A stretch of DNA of 44,570 nt. Origin: a virus. Taxonomy: Duplodnaviria > Heunggongvirae > Uroviricota > Caudoviricetes. Shown here piece by piece: positions 25,593 to 37,295 of this stretch (its first letter is position 1; every line of letters starts with the position of its first letter). Both the position numbers and the translations under genes were made by a program. The stretch lies in IMG/VR virus record IMGVR_UViG_2877973648_000004; one strand, written 5' to 3'. The notes beneath the pieces were generated by a model. It ran no database searches and had not been told where the DNA came from. It was given only the letters and a program-made list of their open reading frames with translations.

Positions 25593-25666
25593 TCATTCAT
25601 GTCACACACAACAACGGCAACATATACGATTTATTCTGCTCATTTGTTCATTGAAAAGCAAGCTCG

Positions 25667-26149
25667 TTATGAGGATTTTTTTGCAATTTTCCTCACATTT
25701 TCGCGATTGTTAAACGCATTTTGCAGCGGTTGGTACAAGCAGAACAGTGAGGCATTGATGATTTGCTTCACCTCTCTACGGATTGTCGAGATGCTTGGGT
25801 GTTTATACTGATTTCCGCCACGCGTCTTCATCAGGCGAGGCTTACTTACTGTATGCTGCCATGATGCAATTCGGATCTCGCTGGAGTTACAAACGTAGTA
25901 GGCGAAGACAACCCGCCAGGCATTTTCATCCACATTCTTCAGATAGTGACGAATGACAGCATCAATGAGCATCCCGTCATCATCACTACATACCGGTCGT
26001 GATGCTTGCTGGGGCTCAACGGTAGCCATGAATCTGGCAATCATGTTGATCATCGCTTTATCAATCTTGCCGGTCTGGCACCATGCGCCCCACAACTGGA
26101 GCCACTGGTCTACCCATTGATGCTGGTCGTTGGTTAATTCCAGTTTCAT
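25667..26149 (-). CDS. Late-gene antiterminator Q-like protein
   Basis: N-terminal 95 aa show LWGAWC...CSDDDGML...YYV pattern I recall from QuuD/P22 gp23-type Q proteins; located between nin genes and lysis genes. Confidence 0.55.
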   Translation of the reverse strand: MKLELTNDQHQWVDQWLQLWGAWCQTGKIDKAMINMIARFMATVEPQQASRPVCSDDDGMLIDAVIRHYLKNVDENAWRVVFAYYVCNSSEIRIASWQHTVSKPRLMKTRGGNQYKHPSISTIRREVKQIINASLFCLYQPLQNAFNNRENVRKIAKKSS

Positions 26150-26251
26150 TATGCGGCTTCCTTCTGTGGCTGGTTGGTTTTGGTCTGGCTGTGCTTTGCT
26201 ACTGGCGGCAGGCTGGCGCGCTTAACGCTTTCTGCCTGGTACTTTTCGAAA

Positions 26252-26452
26252 TCAGCTCTGGTCATGATTCCACCACTCCCGTGCTGACTTTCTGTATTCA
26301 GGGTTTTCTGTCTGACAGATAATTTCCGCTCGATCGCCGCTTATCAGCTCACGAGCTTTCGCATACAGCCTTTCTCTTTTAGAAAGCTGCGTCGTTTCAT
26401 ACCAGGTGCTGGCAACGAACTTTCTCGCTTCAACTGGAGTGAATGCCTTCAT
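26252..26452 (-). CDS. Hypothetical nin-region protein
   Basis: 66 aa, ATG overlapping the NinG stop. Confidence 0.4.
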   Translation of the reverse strand: MKAFTPVEARKFVASTWYETTQLSKRERLYAKARELISGDRAEIICQTENPEYRKSAREWWNHDQS

Positions 26453-27060
26453 GCTGCCTCCCGCTGTTTTAGTGCGCGAAGATCTGCCCTGGCTTTGGCG
26501 CGGATGCCATCGAGCTCTTCTCGGGTGTATCGGTGGGTTTCGTTGTTGGATTCCAGCGCCAGCACGCGCTCTTCTCCGATCAGTTCGACCAGAGCGGCAC
26601 GGTACGCCTCAATGTTCCCGGACTTGTGAACGTTGCAGGCGGAGCACTGGAGCCAGATATTGTCCGGATTAAAGCGAAGCTGTGGTGCGGCTGCCGTAGT
26701 CCGATAATGGCCAGCATGCCAGGCGAACGCCGTTTTAGTTCCGCAGGAAATACAGCCCCGCCCCTCCGCCAACTCCGTCTCGCGGCAAATGTCATTTACG
26801 GCACGCTGCGTCAGGTCAATCCAGTGCTTCAGCGGCTTAACTGCAGCTTTACGCTGGCGCCAGGCTGCACGTTCTTTCTTCTCAGTGGCGCGCTGCTTGG
26901 CAGACTCTTTGCGTTGTGCAGCCTCCCGGGCTTTTCTGGTCTGCTCTTTCCCGACGGCGCTGGCGCACTCATAACCGCAGACGGTCTGCGTGTCGCGTAC
27001 TGGATTGAACCACTGGCGGCATTCCTTGTTGGCGCACTTCCGGCGCGGTAACTTAGCCAT
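26449..27060 (-). CDS. ninG: NinG-like protein (Rap family)
   Basis: MAKLPRRKCANKECRQWF... and CISCGT...WHAGHYRTTAAAPQLRFNPDNI...HKSGN closely resemble lambda NinG. Confidence 0.8.
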   Translation of the reverse strand: MAKLPRRKCANKECRQWFNPVRDTQTVCGYECASAVGKEQTRKAREAAQRKESAKQRATEKKERAAWRQRKAAVKPLKHWIDLTQRAVNDICRETELAEGRGCISCGTKTAFAWHAGHYRTTAAAPQLRFNPDNIWLQCSACNVHKSGNIEAYRAALVELIGEERVLALESNNETHRYTREELDGIRAKARADLRALKQREAA

Positions 27061-27062
27061 AA

Positions 27063-27272
27063 TCACCCCCAGACCTTTTGTCGAAAGGTTCTTGGTGTAC
27101 GCGCCGGATGCTCGCATTCAGGCAATTTTGCGCTGATAGTCCAGGTGATGTTGTCGCGATTCAGGCTACGTTCTACCGTGGCGCCACGACGACGGTAACT
27201 GGCCACCAGCTCGTCGGCCTGATCGGTTGTGCATTCGTGATGGTGGAACCAGGAATATTTCATCGCCATCAC
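27063..27272 (-). CDS. Hypothetical nin-region protein
   Basis: 69 aa ORF abutting ninG. Confidence 0.35.
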   Translation of the reverse strand: MMAMKYSWFHHHECTTDQADELVASYRRRGATVERSLNRDNITWTISAKLPECEHPARTPRTFRQKVWG

Positions 27273-27868
27273 CCCGCAAAGCTCATGAGCTGCGATGCGG
27301 CGTTTTCCGCTTCACGCTGGTCCTTGAATGCCCGGGACAATACCCAGCGCCACAGAACATCGAGCGCGGCTTTGTACAGCTGCTGGAACTCGGTTTCGTC
27401 CATGTTGGCAAAGGCAATGCTGCGGGGGTGTTTGCGAAGGGTGCCGTCGGGAAGCTGTATGGCGTCGTAGTGGCCAGACTCGATGATCACCCATGCACGA
27501 TATGCGTCATAGGATTTGCAGATGCTGATACTACCGGCGCGCTTATCGGCGATACGGTCCAGATACTGCTCGGCAGCATCCAGCAGTGCGCCTTCGTTTC
27601 CACCAAATGCCGCGAGGAATTTAGCGTACCCGGTCACCAATTTACGTTCATTGGAAGAAATCGCCCCACCGGTGGGTTCCCAGTATTCAAACCCGAGATT
27701 CAGGAGCGCAAAGAAACGGCGATGGAATGCTGGATTCCTCACCTGACGAAATTCGGCTACCAATACGGCACCAAGTTTGATTTTTGATTGCAGAATATCG
27801 CTGGTCTCCGGCGTAGCGGGGATCAGAATTCCTGAGGACTGCTTAATGAGTTGTAGTTCGTGCGCCAT
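27269..27868 (-). CDS. Hypothetical nin-region protein
   Basis: 199 aa ORF in an operon-like array; no recognised motif. Confidence 0.45.
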   Translation of the reverse strand: MAHELQLIKQSSGILIPATPETSDILQSKIKLGAVLVAEFRQVRNPAFHRRFFALLNLGFEYWEPTGGAISSNERKLVTGYAKFLAAFGGNEGALLDAAEQYLDRIADKRAGSISICKSYDAYRAWVIIESGHYDAIQLPDGTLRKHPRSIAFANMDETEFQQLYKAALDVLWRWVLSRAFKDQREAENAASQLMSFAG

Positions 27869-28268: not shown

Positions 28269-28502
28269 CTAATAAAACCAGTCGTCAGCGCTTTCCCAGG
28301 TATCCTGGAGGATTGATTCAATTTTCTTTTTATCGTCCTTGTCACCACCAAAAACACTTAACCCATCGGACCCAGCACGGCGGATTGTGAGCCTGCAATT
28401 GTCATAGTGATCATTCAGGCGCTTAAGCAGTTCTTTCTCCAGTGCTGGTACTGCGCCTTTAGGAAGTTCTTTCATGCGATCAATGGTTAATTCAACTTTC
28501 AT
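28269..28502 (-). CDS. dinI: DinI-like DNA-damage-inducible protein
   Basis: MKVELTI...ILQDTWESADDWFY closely matches E. coli DinI (C-terminal ETWESADDWF); GGAGG RBS. Confidence 0.8.
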   Translation of the reverse strand: MKVELTIDRMKELPKGAVPALEKELLKRLNDHYDNCRLTIRRAGSDGLSVFGGDKDDKKKIESILQDTWESADDWFY

Positions 28503-28520
28503 AATAGCCTCCATTGCATG

Positions 28521-28540
28521 TACTGTGTTTTTATACAGTA
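28521..28540. promoter_or_regulatory. LexA (SOS) box
   Basis: TACTGTGTTTTTATACAGTA matches CTGT-N8-ACAG with TA flanks, about 20 nt upstream of the dinI-like start. Confidence 0.7.
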
Positions 28541-28607
28541 TACCTATGCACGGAAATGATCAACGTTTTAAGAGCACAAATTGTTAATTTTCTGTCAGTA
28601 TTAAAAA

Positions 28608-28632
28608 AAGAAAACCCGCCGTAGCGGGTTGA
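28608..28632 (-). terminator. Rho-independent terminator
   Basis: Minus strand aacccgc-tacg-gcgggtt followed by T-rich tract. Confidence 0.45.
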
Positions 28633-28762
28633 ATTAGCAATGTTTTATTACGCCGCTATTTGTTTCTGCTGACAAAGCTCCGGCAAATTAGCACGCACCA
28701 GCGCCTCAGCGAGCGCTGGAGGCACAGCGTTACCACAGCGCGCTACCAGAAAGAAAAAACCC

Positions 28763-28790
28763 GCATATAGCGGGTTTATTACAAGCTTTG
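28763..28790 (-). terminator. Rho-independent terminator after the HTH/peptidase gene
   Basis: Minus strand aaacccgc-tatat-gcgggttt followed by ttttctttc, just 3' of the stop at 28793. Confidence 0.5.
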
Positions 28791-28792
28791 AG

Positions 28793-29896
28793 TCAAACCA
28801 GTTGAAGTAGATTTCTTGGATTTGACAGTGGGCGGTTTACCGAGAATAACTCCCTAACCAACTCCTGGCTTAAACCAGTTTTCATGAGAATGCTCATCCA
28901 TGTTGCATCATCCAGCATTTCAATCGCCTCAGCTAACATACTCGGTTCTTCCGGGCGAATAAATTCATCTCCTGGTTCAACTTTCGTATATCCTTTAGAG
29001 TTCAAATGCATATAACCTGTTCTTGCCTGCTCCTGCGTCAGCAGGCCTAGAGTTGTTGCTCGGTAAATGCACATTTTAAGACTAATCTTCCACCGAAGCT
29101 TAAACTCAACTAGGGCGTTCCAATCGAACTGTCTTCCTCGTATACGGGGAAACTCTTTAATAAAGGACAATCGAGGAACTAGCAACGCGCTTGAAAAACG
29201 ATCCGCTTGCGATTCAGTCACTTTATCTCCTGTGGTTATACCTTCGTGCATAACCAAGTGCCCCAATTCGTGACCTAAATCTGATCGGAATCTGCATATA
29301 CTCTTTTTGACGTTATTTCGGATGATTACTGGCCTGTTGTTATGAACAGTAAAAGCATCTACGCGGTCATCCACTCCTGTCACATGAGCAACAATAACCC
29401 CCAAACTCTCAGCCAGTTTGACCATTGAGGATATAGGTCCCAGCCCTAAGTTCCATGCTCTTCTGCAGTCTTCCGCTACACGTTCAATATCATTTGGAGT
29501 CAGCAATTCAGCACCGGGGTGCTCAGGTATGAAAACATCAGGAAACTCGATTTCTCCCTCAACGGCAGAGATTATAATGTTAAGAATCTCCGCCCTTGCC
29601 AGAACACTATTGGTTAATGTTTGGGTTCTCGATTTTTTACTCCGAAAATGGCAAACATCGCTTTCTAAAGCATATTTTCGTTCAGTAAATAGGAAATCAG
29701 ATTTAATCATCAGCGCAGATGAGATTAATTCTAACAACTGTTCTGATGGTTTAAACCCTTTTTCCAATTTGCTAACGAATTGTTTTGTTTTACCAATTTT
29801 CTCCGCTAACTCTTCGCAGGAGAGCCCAACAGCCATTCTGGCTAATTTGAGCTTATCCCCACGATACTCAGCAAAGTCATTCACTTGATGTTCCAT
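28793..29896 (-). CDS. Fused HTH (XRE-type) / ImmA-IrrE-like zinc metallopeptidase
   Basis: N-terminal HTH-like LSCEELAEKIGKTKQFVSKLEKG; HEXXH-type motif HELGHLVMH in the C-terminal half; AT-rich. Confidence 0.6.
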   Translation of the reverse strand: MEHQVNDFAEYRGDKLKLARMAVGLSCEELAEKIGKTKQFVSKLEKGFKPSEQLLELISSALMIKSDFLFTERKYALESDVCHFRSKKSRTQTLTNSVLARAEILNIIISAVEGEIEFPDVFIPEHPGAELLTPNDIERVAEDCRRAWNLGLGPISSMVKLAESLGVIVAHVTGVDDRVDAFTVHNNRPVIIRNNVKKSICRFRSDLGHELGHLVMHEGITTGDKVTESQADRFSSALLVPRLSFIKEFPRIRGRQFDWNALVEFKLRWKISLKMCIYRATTLGLLTQEQARTGYMHLNSKGYTKVEPGDEFIRPEEPSMLAEAIEMLDDATWMSILMKTGLSQELVRELFSVNRPLSNPRNLLQLV

Positions 29897-30527
29897 TACT
29901 GCTCACATCCAAATCTTGATCTTTTTTACGGCGGCGAAGAGAGGCTTTGCCAATCTCAGCTTCATCCGGAAGAGTGTTGGTATCAAGAGACATAAGCGGC
30001 GCTGAAGCAGTAGATTGGTGTGAAACCATACTGATCTGGGCACCATATGCGTTAAACCCAACTAAAGCCACTTCCCAGCGAGGCAATGTTGATTCCAGCT
30101 CGCCATCTTCTTCATCGGATAAAAATGGTTCGGCGATGATCCGCCATGTAATATCTTGCTCGGCTTCAGTTTCACCGAACAATGAAAGTTGCTCATGCTC
30201 CACCCTATTTCGAAGAAGGCGATGCTTCTTCTTCGGGTTATTAATGCAATCTTTGGAGAACTGCAGCGGCACTTTATTTAACGCAACCACATAATCCAGT
30301 CCCTTCGAAACCATTTCCAGACCCGGCAGTGTCCCTTCACTTTGAATCAAATGATTTCTGACCCAATCATAAGCCCTTACACCTTCGGACCAGTTACTGT
30401 CCAGTGTGTGTTTGTGGTAGTACAATTGCTCGAGTACATTAGCAATTTCCGCTAACAACTGACGAACATTGCTTTCAGCAAGGTAAGGCTGAAATTCCCA
30501 ACAAGGTGCTAACTGGTTGTCGCTCAT
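29877..30527 (-). CDS. Hypothetical protein, upstream partner of the HTH/peptidase gene
   Basis: 216 aa, overlaps the downstream gene by about 20 nt (operon); no recognised motif. Confidence 0.45.
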   Translation of the reverse strand: MSDNQLAPCWEFQPYLAESNVRQLLAEIANVLEQLYYHKHTLDSNWSEGVRAYDWVRNHLIQSEGTLPGLEMVSKGLDYVVALNKVPLQFSKDCINNPKKKHRLLRNRVEHEQLSLFGETEAEQDITWRIIAEPFLSDEEDGELESTLPRWEVALVGFNAYGAQISMVSHQSTASAPLMSLDTNTLPDEAEIGKASLRRRKKDQDLDVSSNGTSSE

Positions 30528-30730
30528 TTCAAGTTTCGCTTTTTTTGGAATTCGTAAACCATATATTTTCGCATTTTCTCGATTTTGTCAACCAAGCAAC
30601 CAAAATCATTTACCGAAAATGATGATTAGAAAGATCCCGCTCATGTCGCATGAGTTGATTGCTAAGCAACCAAATACAAGCCTGACTGAGCTAGGCAACC
30701 ATAGACTTGGTAATGCTACCTTTCAGACAT

Positions 30731-30760
30731 AAAAAACCTCTAACTTAGAGGCTTTTATTC
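30731..30760 (-). terminator. Hairpin terminator (bidirectional-looking)
   Basis: cctcta-actt-agagg with A/T runs on both sides, after the stop of the 106-aa gene. Confidence 0.4.
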
Positions 30761-30782
30761 GTTTGCTATTGGAGTTAAACAC

Positions 30783-31103
30783 TTAGCCGTTGATGTCGCC
30801 GTGTTCAATCATACCGAACCATTCAAATTGCCCAATCGAACGTAGCGCGCACTGTCTAATTTTTTCTGCCTCCTCCGAATACTCATTAAACCCGGGAATA
30901 AATTCAAAATTACAGCAGCAAGAGCCTGAATCATAGAAGACACTTTCAATACATTTTACAAGCCCAACTGAAGCTACATAGTAAGAAAAACGTAGCATTT
31001 GAGACAGTTCCATCGCAACTCCATGCCTACTGGTAAGCGGGATCCCGAAAGCCTCAATTCCATATTCATTCATTTGGCCTTTTTCAGGCATTATGTAAGA
31101 CAT
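30783..31103 (-). CDS. Hypothetical protein (Cys-cluster SGSCCC)
   Basis: 106 aa ORF with its own terminator. Confidence 0.4.
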   Translation of the reverse strand: MSYIMPEKGQMNEYGIEAFGIPLTSRHGVAMELSQMLRFSYYVASVGLVKCIESVFYDSGSCCCNFEFIPGFNEYSEEAEKIRQCALRSIGQFEWFGMIEHGDING

Positions 31104-31156
31104 AAGGACTCCTTATTATGTTCATAATGAATTAGGGTTCAATTATCCATAAGAGT

Positions 31157-32896: not shown

Positions 32897-33586
32897 TCAC
32901 ACCATCCCGTTCGACTTGTTGCGGTTGTACTTGGCCAGCAGCAGCTGGATCGGCGTCGGCCCTTGCTCGGCAGCTGGTGCGGCAATAGCCCGGCGTACCG
33001 GCGGCACTGGCTTACCCTCGGTGACGCGCCTTTCCCACATGTCCAGCAGATCGCCTGCCTCGCGTGCCAGTTCACCATGCGTTAACTGGCGCTCGGTGCT
33101 GCGGTGGCGCAATTCTACGCAAATGTGGTACATGACCGGCTGCGACCATGGAAATTGCTCGCTGGAGATGAATTCGAACGAGCGGTTACGCCAGTCCCAG
33201 TATTCGGCGATCACCTGGTCAACGTTGACGCCCAGCGCGCCGCCGCTCTGCTTGCACCAGGCGACGAACTGGCCCGGCGACGGCAGGAATGGGCGCTCCT
33301 GGCGGCGGGCAATGCGCATGCCGGCATCGACCTGAGCCATGGTGTGGATCCCGTTCTCCTGAAACGCCAGCAGCCACTGACGGCGGAATTCGTTCAGGTC
33401 TTCCTGGGTGCGGAAGTTCGCCATGCTGGCCGGGAACGCGGCGCGCAGCTCGTTGAACAGCTTGTTGAATACCTGCGCCACCTGCTCGACCGGCGCGCAC
33501 TCCTGGTACTGCTCTGGCAGGTTATGGGCCATGCGGCTCATCTGCTCGCGGTCGTGGTTACGCATCTGCTCTGCAAGAGATTTCAT
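32897..33586 (-). CDS. Replication protein P-like (helicase loader)
   Basis: FPAS.ANF...RRQW.LAF.ENGI.TM.QV.AGMR.ARRQ.RPFLPSPGQFVAWC is near-colinear with lambda P. Confidence 0.8.
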   Translation of the reverse strand: MKSLAEQMRNHDREQMSRMAHNLPEQYQECAPVEQVAQVFNKLFNELRAAFPASMANFRTQEDLNEFRRQWLLAFQENGIHTMAQVDAGMRIARRQERPFLPSPGQFVAWCKQSGGALGVNVDQVIAEYWDWRNRSFEFISSEQFPWSQPVMYHICVELRHRSTERQLTHGELAREAGDLLDMWERRVTEGKPVPPVRRAIAAPAAEQGPTPIQLLLAKYNRNKSNGMV

Positions 33587-34491
33587 CGGATCACCCCATA
33601 GGCCCAGTCAGTGTTGTTGAAGTCCAGATCTGGCTTGACAGCGCGCTGCTCACCTCCGGCGTTACGCTGCATTGTCAGCTTGTCCCACTGCTTACGCAGG
33701 CTTTCGGGACTCAGGATGTTGGTCTGCCAGAAGTGGTGTTTGCTAGCCCAGTCATACAGCGCGCAGATGTCCTGGTGCGACCGGTTGTCTATCTGGCGCA
33801 TCAGGCGAACAGTGTTAGACCAGGAGGTCATGTCCGGGGCTTTGCAGGTTGGGTTAATCAGCTTCACCCTGGAGGAAATCCACTTAGCTGTCTCGAGGTC
33901 TTCAGCAGAGCCCCACTTCGCACCGGATGGTGTGTAGACCGCAGCTTCAGGATGAGTTGATAAAAATTTCTTCAGACGTGCGTCAGAGGATTCGTCAGAA
34001 TTCTCGGACGAAGATCTTTTAATACTGTTCTTGTTCTTGTATTGGGTGTCTACCGTTTTCGGGAAGGTTATTCCTGATTTCGGGAAGGATTTTCCCGTTT
34101 TCGGGAATTTTCTTCCCGTTTCCGGTTTGTCTAAAATCCATGCTGAAAGGTCAGTGTTTACACCGACGATTTTCATCATGCCCTGCTTCTGTGAAAAGAT
34201 GATTTTGCGTTCTGCGAGAGACTTAAGCGCGTCCGATACATGCGTATCGCTCAGGCCCGTAAGCTCGGCAATAACCGTATTTGTCACGCGGTCCTGTTTC
34301 TTGTTCCAGCCGTAGGTAAGCCAGATCACCGCCTCAAAACATTGCCATTCCCGGCCTGACAGTCTCAGGCGAGGCTTAAGCTGTTGGATCTCGTTAGCGA
34401 CCTTGGTATACCCGTTCGACAGGTCGGCCATACGACCTCCCGGTTGTTCGGTTTTATTTGGGAAATTGATTATTTCAGCGGTGTTTGACAT
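33583..34491 (-). CDS. Replication initiator O-like
   Basis: MSNTAEIINF...ADL..GY...TYGWNK..DR.T resembles lambda O N-terminus; iteron repeats inside the gene. Confidence 0.8.
   Translation of the reverse strand: MSNTAEIINFPNKTEQPGGRMADLSNGYTKVANEIQQLKPRLRLSGREWQCFEAVIWLTYGWNKKQDRVTNTVIAELTGLSDTHVSDALKSLAERKIIFSQKQGMMKIVGVNTDLSAWILDKPETGRKFPKTGKSFPKSGITFPKTVDTQYKNKNSIKRSSSENSDESSDARLKKFLSTHPEAAVYTPSGAKWGSAEDLETAKWISSRVKLINPTCKAPDMTSWSNTVRLMRQIDNRSHQDICALYDWASKHHFWQTNILSPESLRKQWDKLTMQRNAGGEQRAVKPDLDFNNTDWAYGVIR
34045..34135. repeat. Origin-like iterons inside the O gene
   Basis: Tandem TTTCGGGAA(GG)/TCCCGTTTTCGGGA repeats with an adjacent AT-rich tract (about 34011-34045). Confidence 0.6.
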
Positions 34492-35144: not shown

Positions 35145-35363
35145 CTACTTTGGTAATCCGTCAGTGGGATTTGGATAGAGATCAGGGCGCAGCTCGTGGG
35201 GGGTTACGCCTGTCATTTTGAAAATCGGGAAGATATAGCTTGGCGGGACGATCCCTTGGTCACGATTCTTCCAATGACTTACAGACATACTCGTCACACC
35301 AAGCGCGATGCTGAGCTTTCTGGCAGAGCCAGCGGCTTTAATTGCTTTATCGAGTGCGGACAT
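35145..35363 (-). CDS. Cro-like HTH regulator
   Basis: 72 aa, AGGAGAA RBS, HTH-like ARKLSIALGVTSMSVSHW, divergent from the repressor gene. Confidence 0.6.
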   Translation of the reverse strand: MSALDKAIKAAGSARKLSIALGVTSMSVSHWKNRDQGIVPPSYIFPIFKMTGVTPHELRPDLYPNPTDGLPK

Positions 35364-35465
35364 GTGCTTCTCCTGCTTATTGATAGCAGAAGTAAACCAC
35401 AGATTTATACTTTATGCAAACTTTGGATTTATTGCGTGCATAAACCAAATATTTACAATGACCAT
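35364..35465. promoter_or_regulatory. Immunity switch intergenic region (divergent promoters and operator-like inverted repeats)
   Basis: TTTATGCA...TGCATAAA inverted repeats; TTGCGT-16-TACAAT promoter-like element ending about 7 nt before the repressor ATG. Confidence 0.5.
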
Positions 35466-35849
35466 ATGAGAAAAGAAGAACCCAACCTCGTTCTGGTGGA
35501 GCGCCTTACTGAGATCACTGATCGCGGCGTTACCAAAGCAGACATGGCAAGAATAGCTGGAGTCACCCCTCAGGCCGTAAACGGCTGGTTCAAAAAAGGC
35601 GTGATTAGTAAGAAATCGGCACTGGCCATAGCCGACGCTGTTGGTATTTCTGTCGCCTGGCTACTCGGTGAAGACGTTGGGGAGAAAGACGGTCTCAAAC
35701 CGGACGAACAGCGTTTGCTCGAGCTCTACCGCCAGCTGCCAGAAGAAGAGCAACAGAACATGCTCCGCATCTTTTCGATACGTCTTAAGGAACTGGATGA
35801 GCTGTATGAGAAGTACATGAAGGGGCGGATTCGCTCGCAGGGGGACTGA
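35466..35849 (+). CDS. CI-like repressor, short HTH-only form (no LexA-like peptidase domain)
   Basis: 127 aa; HTH-like segment VTKADMARIAGVTPQAVNGWFKKG; too short to carry a peptidase domain. Confidence 0.65.
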   Translation: MRKEEPNLVLVERLTEITDRGVTKADMARIAGVTPQAVNGWFKKGVISKKSALAIADAVGISVAWLLGEDVGEKDGLKPDEQRLLELYRQLPEEEQQNMLRIFSIRLKELDELYEKYMKGRIRSQGD

Positions 35850-35990
35850 ATCGCTTTAGGTTTGTCCTGAATTTTTAGTTCCCATGAGACAATGATGTCT
35901 TTACTGGGGGGTGATTCCGCCATTTATGTTAGATTGAAAAAAACTATCAATTTAATTAATATTTATCACTACTACACGGGATGTTTTGCA

Positions 35991-37295
35991 ATGACAGCTG
36001 AGATTGTTGTAATAAATAATACTGGAATCGCCCTTGCTGCTGACTCTGCAGTCACCACAGAGCATAATAGATTAGTAAAAATAAATAATAGTGCGGAAAA
36101 ACTATTCGAACTATCTAAACACCATCCCGTGGGGATCATGATTTATAATAATGCGACACTGGGTGGCGCACCGTGGGAACTTATAATTAAATCCTATAGA
36201 AAACAATTGGGGAAAACTAGTTTCCCTACCATTAAAGAATATGTTAATGACTTTGTAAAATTCATCAATGGTAACTCAGACCTTATAACAAATGAAATGA
36301 GAGAGGCTTGCGTTATAAACCTTGTTGTTGATAACCTCAAAGGTTTGATGAGATACATTAATGATAATAATGTAGTAAACTATTTAACAATGAACCCCGC
36401 CGTTGAACTCGACAATGTTATTTTTCAAAACATAGTTAAGCAAGCCTTTGATTTAGAGATAGGAATCTTAAGGAATAATCTCTTTTTCGAAGGGTTTGAT
36501 ACAGAAGAGTTTAATGATGCTTTAGCATATATACAAGATTTAATATCGCCATACATTTCATCAATTATTGTTCTTGATAACTGTGAAAATATACAGCAAG
36601 AGCTTATGGAAAAAGTCATATTATATTCCACTTGTTTAATTTTCAAAGTCCATGCTAGTCGTACATATTCAGGGATTGTTATAACAGGTTATGGAGAGGA
36701 AGAATATTACCCTTCCATTTGCACTCTTCATATCTACGGCATTTTTAAAAACAAATTGATGATCCATAATATTGATGAGAAATCCCATAATGAGGTAACC
36801 AATATGGGGTTTGTTATACCATTTGCTCAAGAAGATGAAGTAGTAACTTTCATTGATGGGTGCAACCCTAACATCATTAATTTTAACAGAACTCTTACAG
36901 AGGAAGTTTTTGATCGGCTTAATCATTATGTTTCTAGCAATATTTTCCCTGCAATGAACAATGGAGTACTAGCCAATCACTTCTCCAGTGAAATTGAGGA
37001 ACTCAAAAACGTACTTTTACAAGATCACGATACTAAACTTGAAAGCTATATTGTTAATAACCATACAAATAAAATGATATCGATGTTGCAATCACTTGGG
37101 AAGGCAGATCTTGCGTATATGGCCGAATCATTAGTGAACATCACTGCATTCAAAAGAAAAGTATCACATGATTATGAAACTGTCGGTGGGCCTGTTGATG
37201 TCGCTGTGATATCAAAAGTTGATGGATTTGTTTGGGTAAATCGTAAACACTACTTCCCTAAAGAGCTAAACTCTAACTACTTTAATCGTCAATAA
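35991..37295 (+). CDS. Large AT-rich protein with N-terminal proteasome-beta/HslV-like Ntn-hydrolase domain
   Basis: Track ORF 35892-37295; from internal Met the sequence is M-TAEIVVINNTGIALAADSAVT...EKLFEL...VGIMIYNNATLGG, matching proteasome-beta Thr1/Gly11/Asp17/Lys~33 spacing; very low GC. Confidence 0.5.
   Translation: MTAEIVVINNTGIALAADSAVTTEHNRLVKINNSAEKLFELSKHHPVGIMIYNNATLGGAPWELIIKSYRKQLGKTSFPTIKEYVNDFVKFINGNSDLITNEMREACVINLVVDNLKGLMRYINDNNVVNYLTMNPAVELDNVIFQNIVKQAFDLEIGILRNNLFFEGFDTEEFNDALAYIQDLISPYISSIIVLDNCENIQQELMEKVILYSTCLIFKVHASRTYSGIVITGYGEEEYYPSICTLHIYGIFKNKLMIHNIDEKSHNEVTNMGFVIPFAQEDEVVTFIDGCNPNIINFNRTLTEEVFDRLNHYVSSNIFPAMNNGVLANHFSSEIEELKNVLLQDHDTKLESYIVNNHTNKMISMLQSLGKADLAYMAESLVNITAFKRKVSHDYETVGGPVDVAVISKVDGFVWVNRKHYFPKELNSNYFNRQ

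Follow-up and report, generated by a model that had tools for sequence, protein, structure and literature searches.

A probable RosmerTA toxin-antitoxin cassette of the Vmi480/Vmi470 subfamily in the nin region of an Escherichia coli lambdoid prophage

The stretch of DNA analysed here (IMG/VR record IMGVR_UViG_2877973648_000004, 44,570 nt; hereafter, the window) was found to be a complete lambdoid, Rac-like prophage whose integration site adjoins tonB-yciI. Its nin region carries a two-gene cassette that is very probably a RosmerTA toxin-antitoxin/anti-phage module of the Vmi480/Vmi470 subfamily, borne as autonomous cargo by this Escherichia coli prophage. Both open reading frames (ORFs) are read from the minus strand: rmrT (29877..30527; 216 amino acids, aa), assigned as a Vmi480-family toxin from its match to the PADLOC RmrT model PDLC03929 and its homology to Vmi480, and rmrA (28793..29896; 367 aa), assigned as the antitoxin and probable autorepressor from Pfam, PADLOC and homology to a verified RmrA. 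The two genes overlap by 20 nt (rmrA ATG at 29896, rmrT stop codon at 29877) and have a GC content of 43.7%, against 50.9% for the window. They are flanked by the replication genes O/P (32897-34491) and by ninB/ninG/Q (25629-27868). An earlier reading made from the letters alone (the sequence-only reading) had described two overlapping AT-rich genes bounded by terminators in a nin-like region, the second encoding a helix-turn-helix (HTH) domain fused to an HEXXH-bearing domain, an arrangement often paired with toxin or defence partners; on all of these points it was borne out. Assignment to RosmerTA rests on the architecture of RmrA, on an adjacent, co-oriented and catalogued RmrT, and on a conserved pairing of the two that moves as a unit. 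The system is already catalogued and existing defence-system models detect the cassette outright, with both proteins matching Rosmer models of PADLOC.

RmrA possesses an N-terminal XRE-type HTH (residues about 13-70, window 29687-29860, minus strand; Pfam HTH_3 at residues 16-62, 3.2e-9), a Zn-peptidase domain (residues 176-280, window 29057-29371, minus strand) and a helical C-terminal part. The peptidase domain matches Pfam Peptidase_M78/IrrE (PF06114, MEROPS M78; 1.3e-10, 41.5 bits against a cutoff of 22) and contains HELGH at residues 209-213 (window 29258-29272, minus strand). Residues H209, E210, H213 and E228, the last within TExQAxxFxSA, are invariant across ten diverse homologues encoded by partner genes of RmrT relatives. 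PADLOC analysis returned the RmrA model PDLC03943 (1.6e-106) and 13 further RmrA models, with CapP and CapH scoring more weakly. A match to NCBIfam NF052239 (‘spr1629 family repressor/antitoxin’; residues 11-354, E 6.8e-46) identifies RmrA as a homologue, not an equivalog, as its 157.1 bits lie under the equivalog cutoff of 335 bits. The family profile also reaches the solved structure of the CapP protease (7t5t; 5.8e-5). Judged from these matches, the peptidase domain is an ImmA/IrrE-type metallopeptidase, as the HEXXH motif had been read. A linker motif, CHFRS, lies between the HTH and the peptidase (residues 82-86, window 29641-29655, minus strand) and is invariant in all ten aligned homologues; the verified RmrA of E. 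coli OLC-716 has VSFRA at this place. The motif may be a processing or docking site.

No motif had been recognised in the 216-aa partner by the sequence-only reading. RmrT has no match in Pfam or NCBIfam, yet it matches PADLOC PDLC03929 (2.4e-26, residues 7-207) and phrog_5786 (6.8e-82), and it falls into no structural or housekeeping family. In a profile search, 1.84 billion cluster representatives yielded 90 relatives, mostly of about 200 aa, with named members in Enterobacterales, Aeromonas, Vibrio, Photobacterium, Pseudomonas and Pseudovibrio; truncated fragments are also present in the databases. PDLC03929 is matched by all 85 of the aligned members, and Pfam scans of the same 85 gave two isolated chance matches and no credible domain. 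When the 85-sequence profile was compared with PDB sequences, nothing was found under an E-value of 0.27. Among plasmids, two E. coli matches at 85% and one marginal match were found. The protein is acidic (pI 4.9), soluble and lacks a transmembrane segment. An AlphaFold2 model built from the 85-sequence alignment is confident (pLDDT 84.5, pTM 0.75): a helical hairpin leads into three strands, two short helices come next, and three more strands precede a disordered charged tail. Foldseek comparison of this model with the PDB gave no significant match (best E 0.14, TM 0.14), and none was obtained among viral structures either. The best-conserved residues of the family are D43, W46, G49, P87, E110, Q113, W128 and R129.

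A function for RmrT is suggested by its relationship to Vmi480 of Vibrio mimicus VM573 (P0187 = 671076.VMD_06480), which was found in a subgroup of the family reached via a Vibrio fluvialis relative. Vmi480 itself matches PDLC03929 (2.2e-34). BLASTP aligns it with RmrT at 25% identity over 173 aa (E 7e-17), and hhalign of Vmi480 against the RmrT family profile gives a probability of 98.2% (E 2.7e-14, 178 columns). On the antitoxin side, RmrA and the Vmi470-type protein encoded at the V. fluvialis locus share 47% identity (E 3e-122). By these comparisons, RmrT is a full-length homologue of a validated toxin. It has been described that Vmi480 alone is lethal to E. coli, that Vmi470 is a 362-aa protein with an HTH and a Zn-peptidase, and that vmi470 could not be deleted alone; from deletion and expression experiments the authors concluded that Vmi480/Vmi470 is a toxin-antitoxin module, and vmi480 serves as a counter-selection marker in pLP11/pLP12 (Luo et al. 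2015, PMC4671572).

The pairing of the two genes is constant. Among the loci compared, four came from a scan of genome contigs and most from exact-protein look-ups. In every related locus examined, an RmrT-family gene is directly followed by an HTH-plus-M78 gene encoding about 361-384 aa, the two usually overlapping or lying within 5 nt of each other, and this holds across Enterobacterales, Aeromonas, Vibrio, Photobacterium, Pseudomonas and Pseudovibrio. The surroundings vary. About 280 E. coli genomes carry an 80%-identical cassette in the nin region beside hokD, and a close variant is present at the same site in about 5% of complete E. coli genomes, including prophages of the O55:H7 lineage. 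In prophages of Serratia and Limnobaculum the cassette lies between Q and the holin gene, in a Mu-like Aeromonas prophage it lies between mor and the lysis genes, and in Vibrio, Photobacterium, Yersinia, Pseudomonas and Pseudovibrio it is borne on islands. Constant pairing in such varied contexts indicates that the two genes move together as a unit. The allele of the window is itself rare: the exact cassette occurs in 5 of 5426 E. coli genomes, and four complete E. coli chromosomes match positions 28500-31150 at 100% identity. The backbone is shared by phage mEp237, which lacks the cassette, and when 50,697 phage genomes were searched by megablast, the only match was at the DinI end of the cassette, in mEp237.

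Several of these loci have noteworthy neighbours. In the prophage of E. coli O55:H7 DEC5D (locus L003, 7883-9369), the 80%-identical cassette lies between hokD and a SIR2-family gene, and the nin region there contains a run of several toxin or defence genes. In a V. fluvialis island (locus L022, 7883-11111), the cassette adjoins an RVT_1 reverse transcriptase, an SMC/AAA ATPase and a small gene, an arrangement resembling a retron or DRT, with an integrase alongside; with the cassette they make up a small defence island. A Limnobaculum prophage, also Rosmer-bearing, encodes a 78-aa protein with an Acb2/Tad1 hairpin domain just past its lysis genes (locus L012, 8273-8509); this domain belongs to a family of sponges directed against Thoeris and the cyclic-oligonucleotide-based anti-phage signalling system (CBASS).

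The leader of the operon contains conserved tandem units, one of them overlapping the promoter. Unit 1 (30562..30593, minus strand; GGTTGACAAAATCGAGAAAATGCGAAAATATA) comprises the core promoter, with -35 TTGACA at 30591-30586 and -10 AAATAT at 30568-30563 separated by a 17-nt spacer, together with a putative RmrA operator. It is conserved across genera: hardly a base differs in loci of E. coli, Proteus, Xenorhabdus, Serratia, Yersinia and Limnobaculum whose RmrT is only 47-85% identical. The conserved block runs from the perfect -35 as GGTTGACAAAA-N5-GAAAATGCGAAAATATA and is nearly unchanged in Proteus and Xenorhabdus, with RmrT at about 50% identity. Unit 2 (30529..30560, minus strand; GGTTTACGAATTCCAAAAAAAGCGAAACTTGA; repeat family D2, 79% identity) is a tandem copy 33 nt downstream, which is found in related loci and spans the predicted transcription start and the 5' untranslated region up to the start codon. 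In about a dozen loci the leader is made up of two or three such units in tandem, recurring every 31-34 nt, with the consensus GTT(G/T)AC-N14-(A/T)GC(G/A)xA, the form in the window being GTTGAC-N14-GCGAAA over about 33 nt. The looser pattern GGTTK-N15-17-GCGA matches three times within 136 nt of the leader and five times in the remaining 89 kb (both strands), a count that is partly post hoc, units 1 and 2 having supplied the pattern.

The 3' block of the unit differs by clade, being GCGAAA in enterics, CCGAA in Aeromonas, TGCAC in Pseudomonas and GCATA in Vibrio. The 3' blocks of units within one locus agree on average at 5.6 of 8 positions; for units taken from different loci the mean is 4.3 of 8 (permutation p about 1e-4). 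Such within-locus agreement is expected of operators read by a co-evolving HTH and points to autorepression by RmrA; the tandem unit overlapping the promoter is probably the RmrA operator, and the conserved units offer a concrete handle on regulation. The sequence-only reading had placed possible operators elsewhere in this leader, in repeated AGCAACCAAA-like elements. The repeats are real, and the 44.5-kb window contains just two exact copies of AAGCAACCAAA, which lie 70 bp apart in the leader (30594-30604 and 30664-30674), the proximal copy abutting unit 1. The conserved operator-like element is the tandem promoter unit instead: as conserved operators the AGCAACCAAA repeats were rejected, being missing from E. 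coli cassettes of roughly 80% identity. On comparison they are peripheral, diverged extra copies of the 5' block of the conserved unit. The distal AAGCAACCAAA is included in a diverged unit 0 (30646..30671, minus strand; GGTTGC-N15-ATGCGA), which fits GGTTK-N15-17-GCGA and is not kept in the 80%-identical cassettes. A degenerate third copy of the 5' block, ATGGTTGCC (30690..30706, minus strand; repeat family D1, 82% identity), has no matching 3' block.

From these features a working of the cassette can be proposed. In the lysogen, the operon would be transcribed from its own sigma-70 promoter (TTGACA-17-AAATAT), with terminators insulating it on both sides, and the 20-nt overlap would couple translation of rmrT and rmrA, toxin first. 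RmrT would be a soluble growth-arresting toxin neutralised by RmrA, as has been shown for homologues. The XRE HTH of RmrA would bind the tandem 33-nt units over the -35/-10 elements and the transcript start and so repress its own operon, in keeping with the conservation and covariation of the units. Neutralisation may require the Zn-peptidase together with host ClpXP, by analogy with relatives. In E. coli E101, a prophage toxin-antitoxin pair (E101_02645/02644) makes clpP essential; its proteins are 33% and 42% identical to Vmi480 and Vmi470, respectively, and membership of E101_02645 in the family rests on the authors’ figure of 33%. In the Rosmer pair RipA/RipB of Streptococcus pneumoniae (Spr1630/Spr1629), ClpX is needed and overexpression of RipB bypasses this need; the antitoxin of ripAB could not be deleted, and the target of RipA is the DnaN sliding clamp. 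From these relatives, RmrA would probably be an antitoxin of the protease type, processing RmrT or passing it to degradation and so going beyond mere sequestration. Infection by another phage would then upset the balance and free RmrT, aborting the infection and protecting the lysogen population.

The most specific form of this proposal is tentative, and taken as a whole we consider it possible but doubtful. It holds that RmrA is a protease-type antitoxin, acting with ClpXP to hold a soluble toxin at a low level, and not a stoichiometric binder; that RmrT has a fold unseen before, with a conserved constellation of Asp43, Glu110 and Trp128-Arg129; that RmrA senses its own level via phased tandem bipartite operators (GTTGAC-N14-GCGAAA every 33 bp); and that a phage blocking the protease or ClpXP fires the system. 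On this reading, the Vmi480-type RmrT family would represent a new kind of toxic activity.

Several points weigh against the interpretation of the cassette as a working anti-phage module of this design. Vmi480/Vmi470 was shown to be a toxin-antitoxin pair and not a defence system (PMC4671572), and no published defence phenotype was found for any member of the PDLC03929 RmrT family. The RmrT of the verified OLC-716 system belongs to another family (239 aa, PDLC03935) with no detectable similarity to that of the window (hhalign probability 0.2%); this mismatch is consistent with the reported diversity of Rosmer toxins (PMC10440598). Carriage of RmrT appears to be limited to prophages and islands, judging from a tblastn search of INPHARED (50,697 phage genomes) that returned no homologue, although prophages commonly carry the family and a PHROG exists for it. 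As to mechanism, no evidence was found for cleavage of RmrT by RmrA, the PLoS Genetics study of RipAB leaves the relationship of ClpX and RipB open, and no published work was found that settles how RmrA acts. In the leader, the -10 element is weak, matching at three of six positions, for which reason a consensus promoter scan missed the promoter of unit 1, and the repeated GTTGAC units might be tandem promoters, or reflect a recent duplication, instead of serving as operators.

An alternative is a pure addiction or stabilisation module, in which post-segregational killing keeps the prophage or island in place and no anti-phage protection is given. Vmi480/Vmi470 resides on a mobilisable genomic island and has been characterised solely as a toxin-antitoxin pair, the E101 homologue was detected only via its toxicity upon repression of clpP, and the literature holds no defence phenotype that we could find for this toxin family. 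We nevertheless regard this reading as unlikely: RosmerTA systems with the same RmrA scaffold, those of E. coli OLC-716 and Gordonia phage Kita, defend against phage, and the neighbours of the cassette are often defence genes, such as the SIR2-family gene and hokD of the DEC5D prophage and the reverse transcriptase and AAA ATPase of the V. fluvialis island. Stabilisation and defence are, moreover, compatible roles.

The M78 peptidase of ImmA/IrrE/CapP type, the invariant CHFRS between HTH and peptidase and the DinI homologue encoded just downstream of the cassette would each fit a switch like ImmR/ImmA or CapH/CapP. In such a switch, a DNA-damage or single-stranded DNA signal would lead the HTH-peptidase to cleave itself or the prophage repressor, thereby controlling prophage induction or an adjacent gene, with the 216-aa protein as a regulated effector or accessory and not a toxin. 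This is highly improbable, given that HTH and peptidase are fused with no separate small repressor, that the cassette moves as a two-gene unit among unrelated prophage positions and non-phage islands, that the prophage encodes CI-like and Cro-like regulators of its own (35145-35849), with the repressor 5.5 kb from the cassette, and that the homologue Vmi480 is directly lethal. That the cassette is a decaying remnant whose ORFs are no longer expressed or active is scarcely credible: a methyltransferase pseudogene in the same slot, the truncated RmrT fragments in databases and the rarity of the exact allele might suggest decay, but both ORFs are full length with all family-invariant residues kept, and the conserved promoter block and terminators remain intact.

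The terminators described by the sequence-only reading were identified on either side of the operon. An intrinsic terminator on the minus strand (28777-28757) lies directly 3' of the rmrA stop codon and closes the rmrTA operon (8-bp stem with five GC pairs and a T-run; -12.8 kcal/mol), and a second hairpin with a T-run is found beyond it (28630-28613, minus strand). On the upstream side, a hairpin followed by UUUUUU (30756-30731, minus strand; -12.5 kcal/mol, z = -4.45) is the intrinsic terminator of a 106-aa gene; it is bidirectional, the terminator scan flagging the plus strand too, and it shields the cassette from read-through. Between the two minus-strand terminators downstream of rmrA lies the C-terminal remnant of a C5 DNA methyltransferase (...GNAVPPALAEALV...; 28648-28746, minus strand), annotated by RefSeq as a pseudogene. 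Phage mEp237 retains a longer methyltransferase fragment in this slot, and the remnant looks like the scar of an earlier cargo, marking the slot as a variable cargo site.

The 106-aa orphan upstream (30783-31103, minus strand) is AT-rich and matches phrog_29216 (1.3e-75), with no match in Pfam, NCBIfam or PADLOC. It was rejected as a member of the cassette, having its own terminator, lacking linkage to the cassette in other genomes and being replaced by hokD in related cassettes. An Rfam scan of the entire window found no RNA family. Further along the prophage, a 467-aa ORF (35892-37295, plus strand; GC about 33%) is located directly 3' of the CI-like repressor gene (35436-35849) on the same strand. 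This ORF occupies a rexAB/sieB-like slot, matches neither Pfam nor PADLOC, and is a candidate for an exclusion or defence gene expressed in the lysogen; it may be more novel than the RosmerTA cassette.

A prophage bearing a self-contained RosmerTA module in a nin-region cargo slot also has value for annotation: RefSeq names the toxin ‘hypothetical protein’ and the antitoxin ‘ImmA/IrrE family metallo-endopeptidase’ or ‘helix-turn-helix domain-containing protein’. With the system catalogued, the remaining interest lies in the fold and target of RmrT and in the conserved operator architecture.

Among characterised systems, Vmi480/Vmi470 of the V. mimicus island MGIVmi1 resembles the cassette in a toxin matching PDLC03929, in toxin-first order and in the type of antitoxin, and the V. 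fluvialis relative of Vmi480 has tandem GTTGAC/GTTTAC units in its leader, as in the window. The two differ in that the toxin of the window is 25% identical to Vmi480, longer (216 aa compared with 198 aa) and ends in a longer acidic/basic tail; in that its genes overlap by 20 nt, whereas the vmi genes lie 5 bp apart; and in their carriers, a lambdoid prophage and a mobilisable genomic island, respectively. The RosmerTA of E. coli OLC-716 is verified as anti-phage, and its rmrA deletion was unobtainable (Millman et al. 2022, bioRxiv 10.1101/2022.05.11.491447). It is likewise a two-gene, toxin-first operon, and its RmrA, of about 370 aa with an XRE HTH and a Zn-peptidase, is 29% identical to that of the window over 301 aa (E 3e-35); the difference lies in its toxin. 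RmrTA of Gordonia phage Kita defends against phage and has a membrane-depolarising RmrT of a different family (PMC10440598), in contrast to the soluble RmrT described here, which has no transmembrane segment. RipB of S. pneumoniae is related through the spr1629 family model, to which RmrA is homologous over its full length (157 bits), although short of the 335 bits of the equivalog cutoff. Between RipA and the RmrT of the window no homology was found, although no test aimed at it could be made. Finally, ImmR/ImmA of ICEBs1, DdrO/IrrE of Deinococcus and the CBASS-associated CapH/CapP share with the cassette an M78 HEXXH peptidase and an XRE-type HTH. In those systems a separate HTH repressor is cleaved by the protease, leading to de-repression, whereas in the window the HTH is fused to the peptidase in one polypeptide, no separate small HTH gene occurs in the cassette, and the fused protein is accompanied by a toxin, which sets the pair apart from the ImmR/ImmA type.

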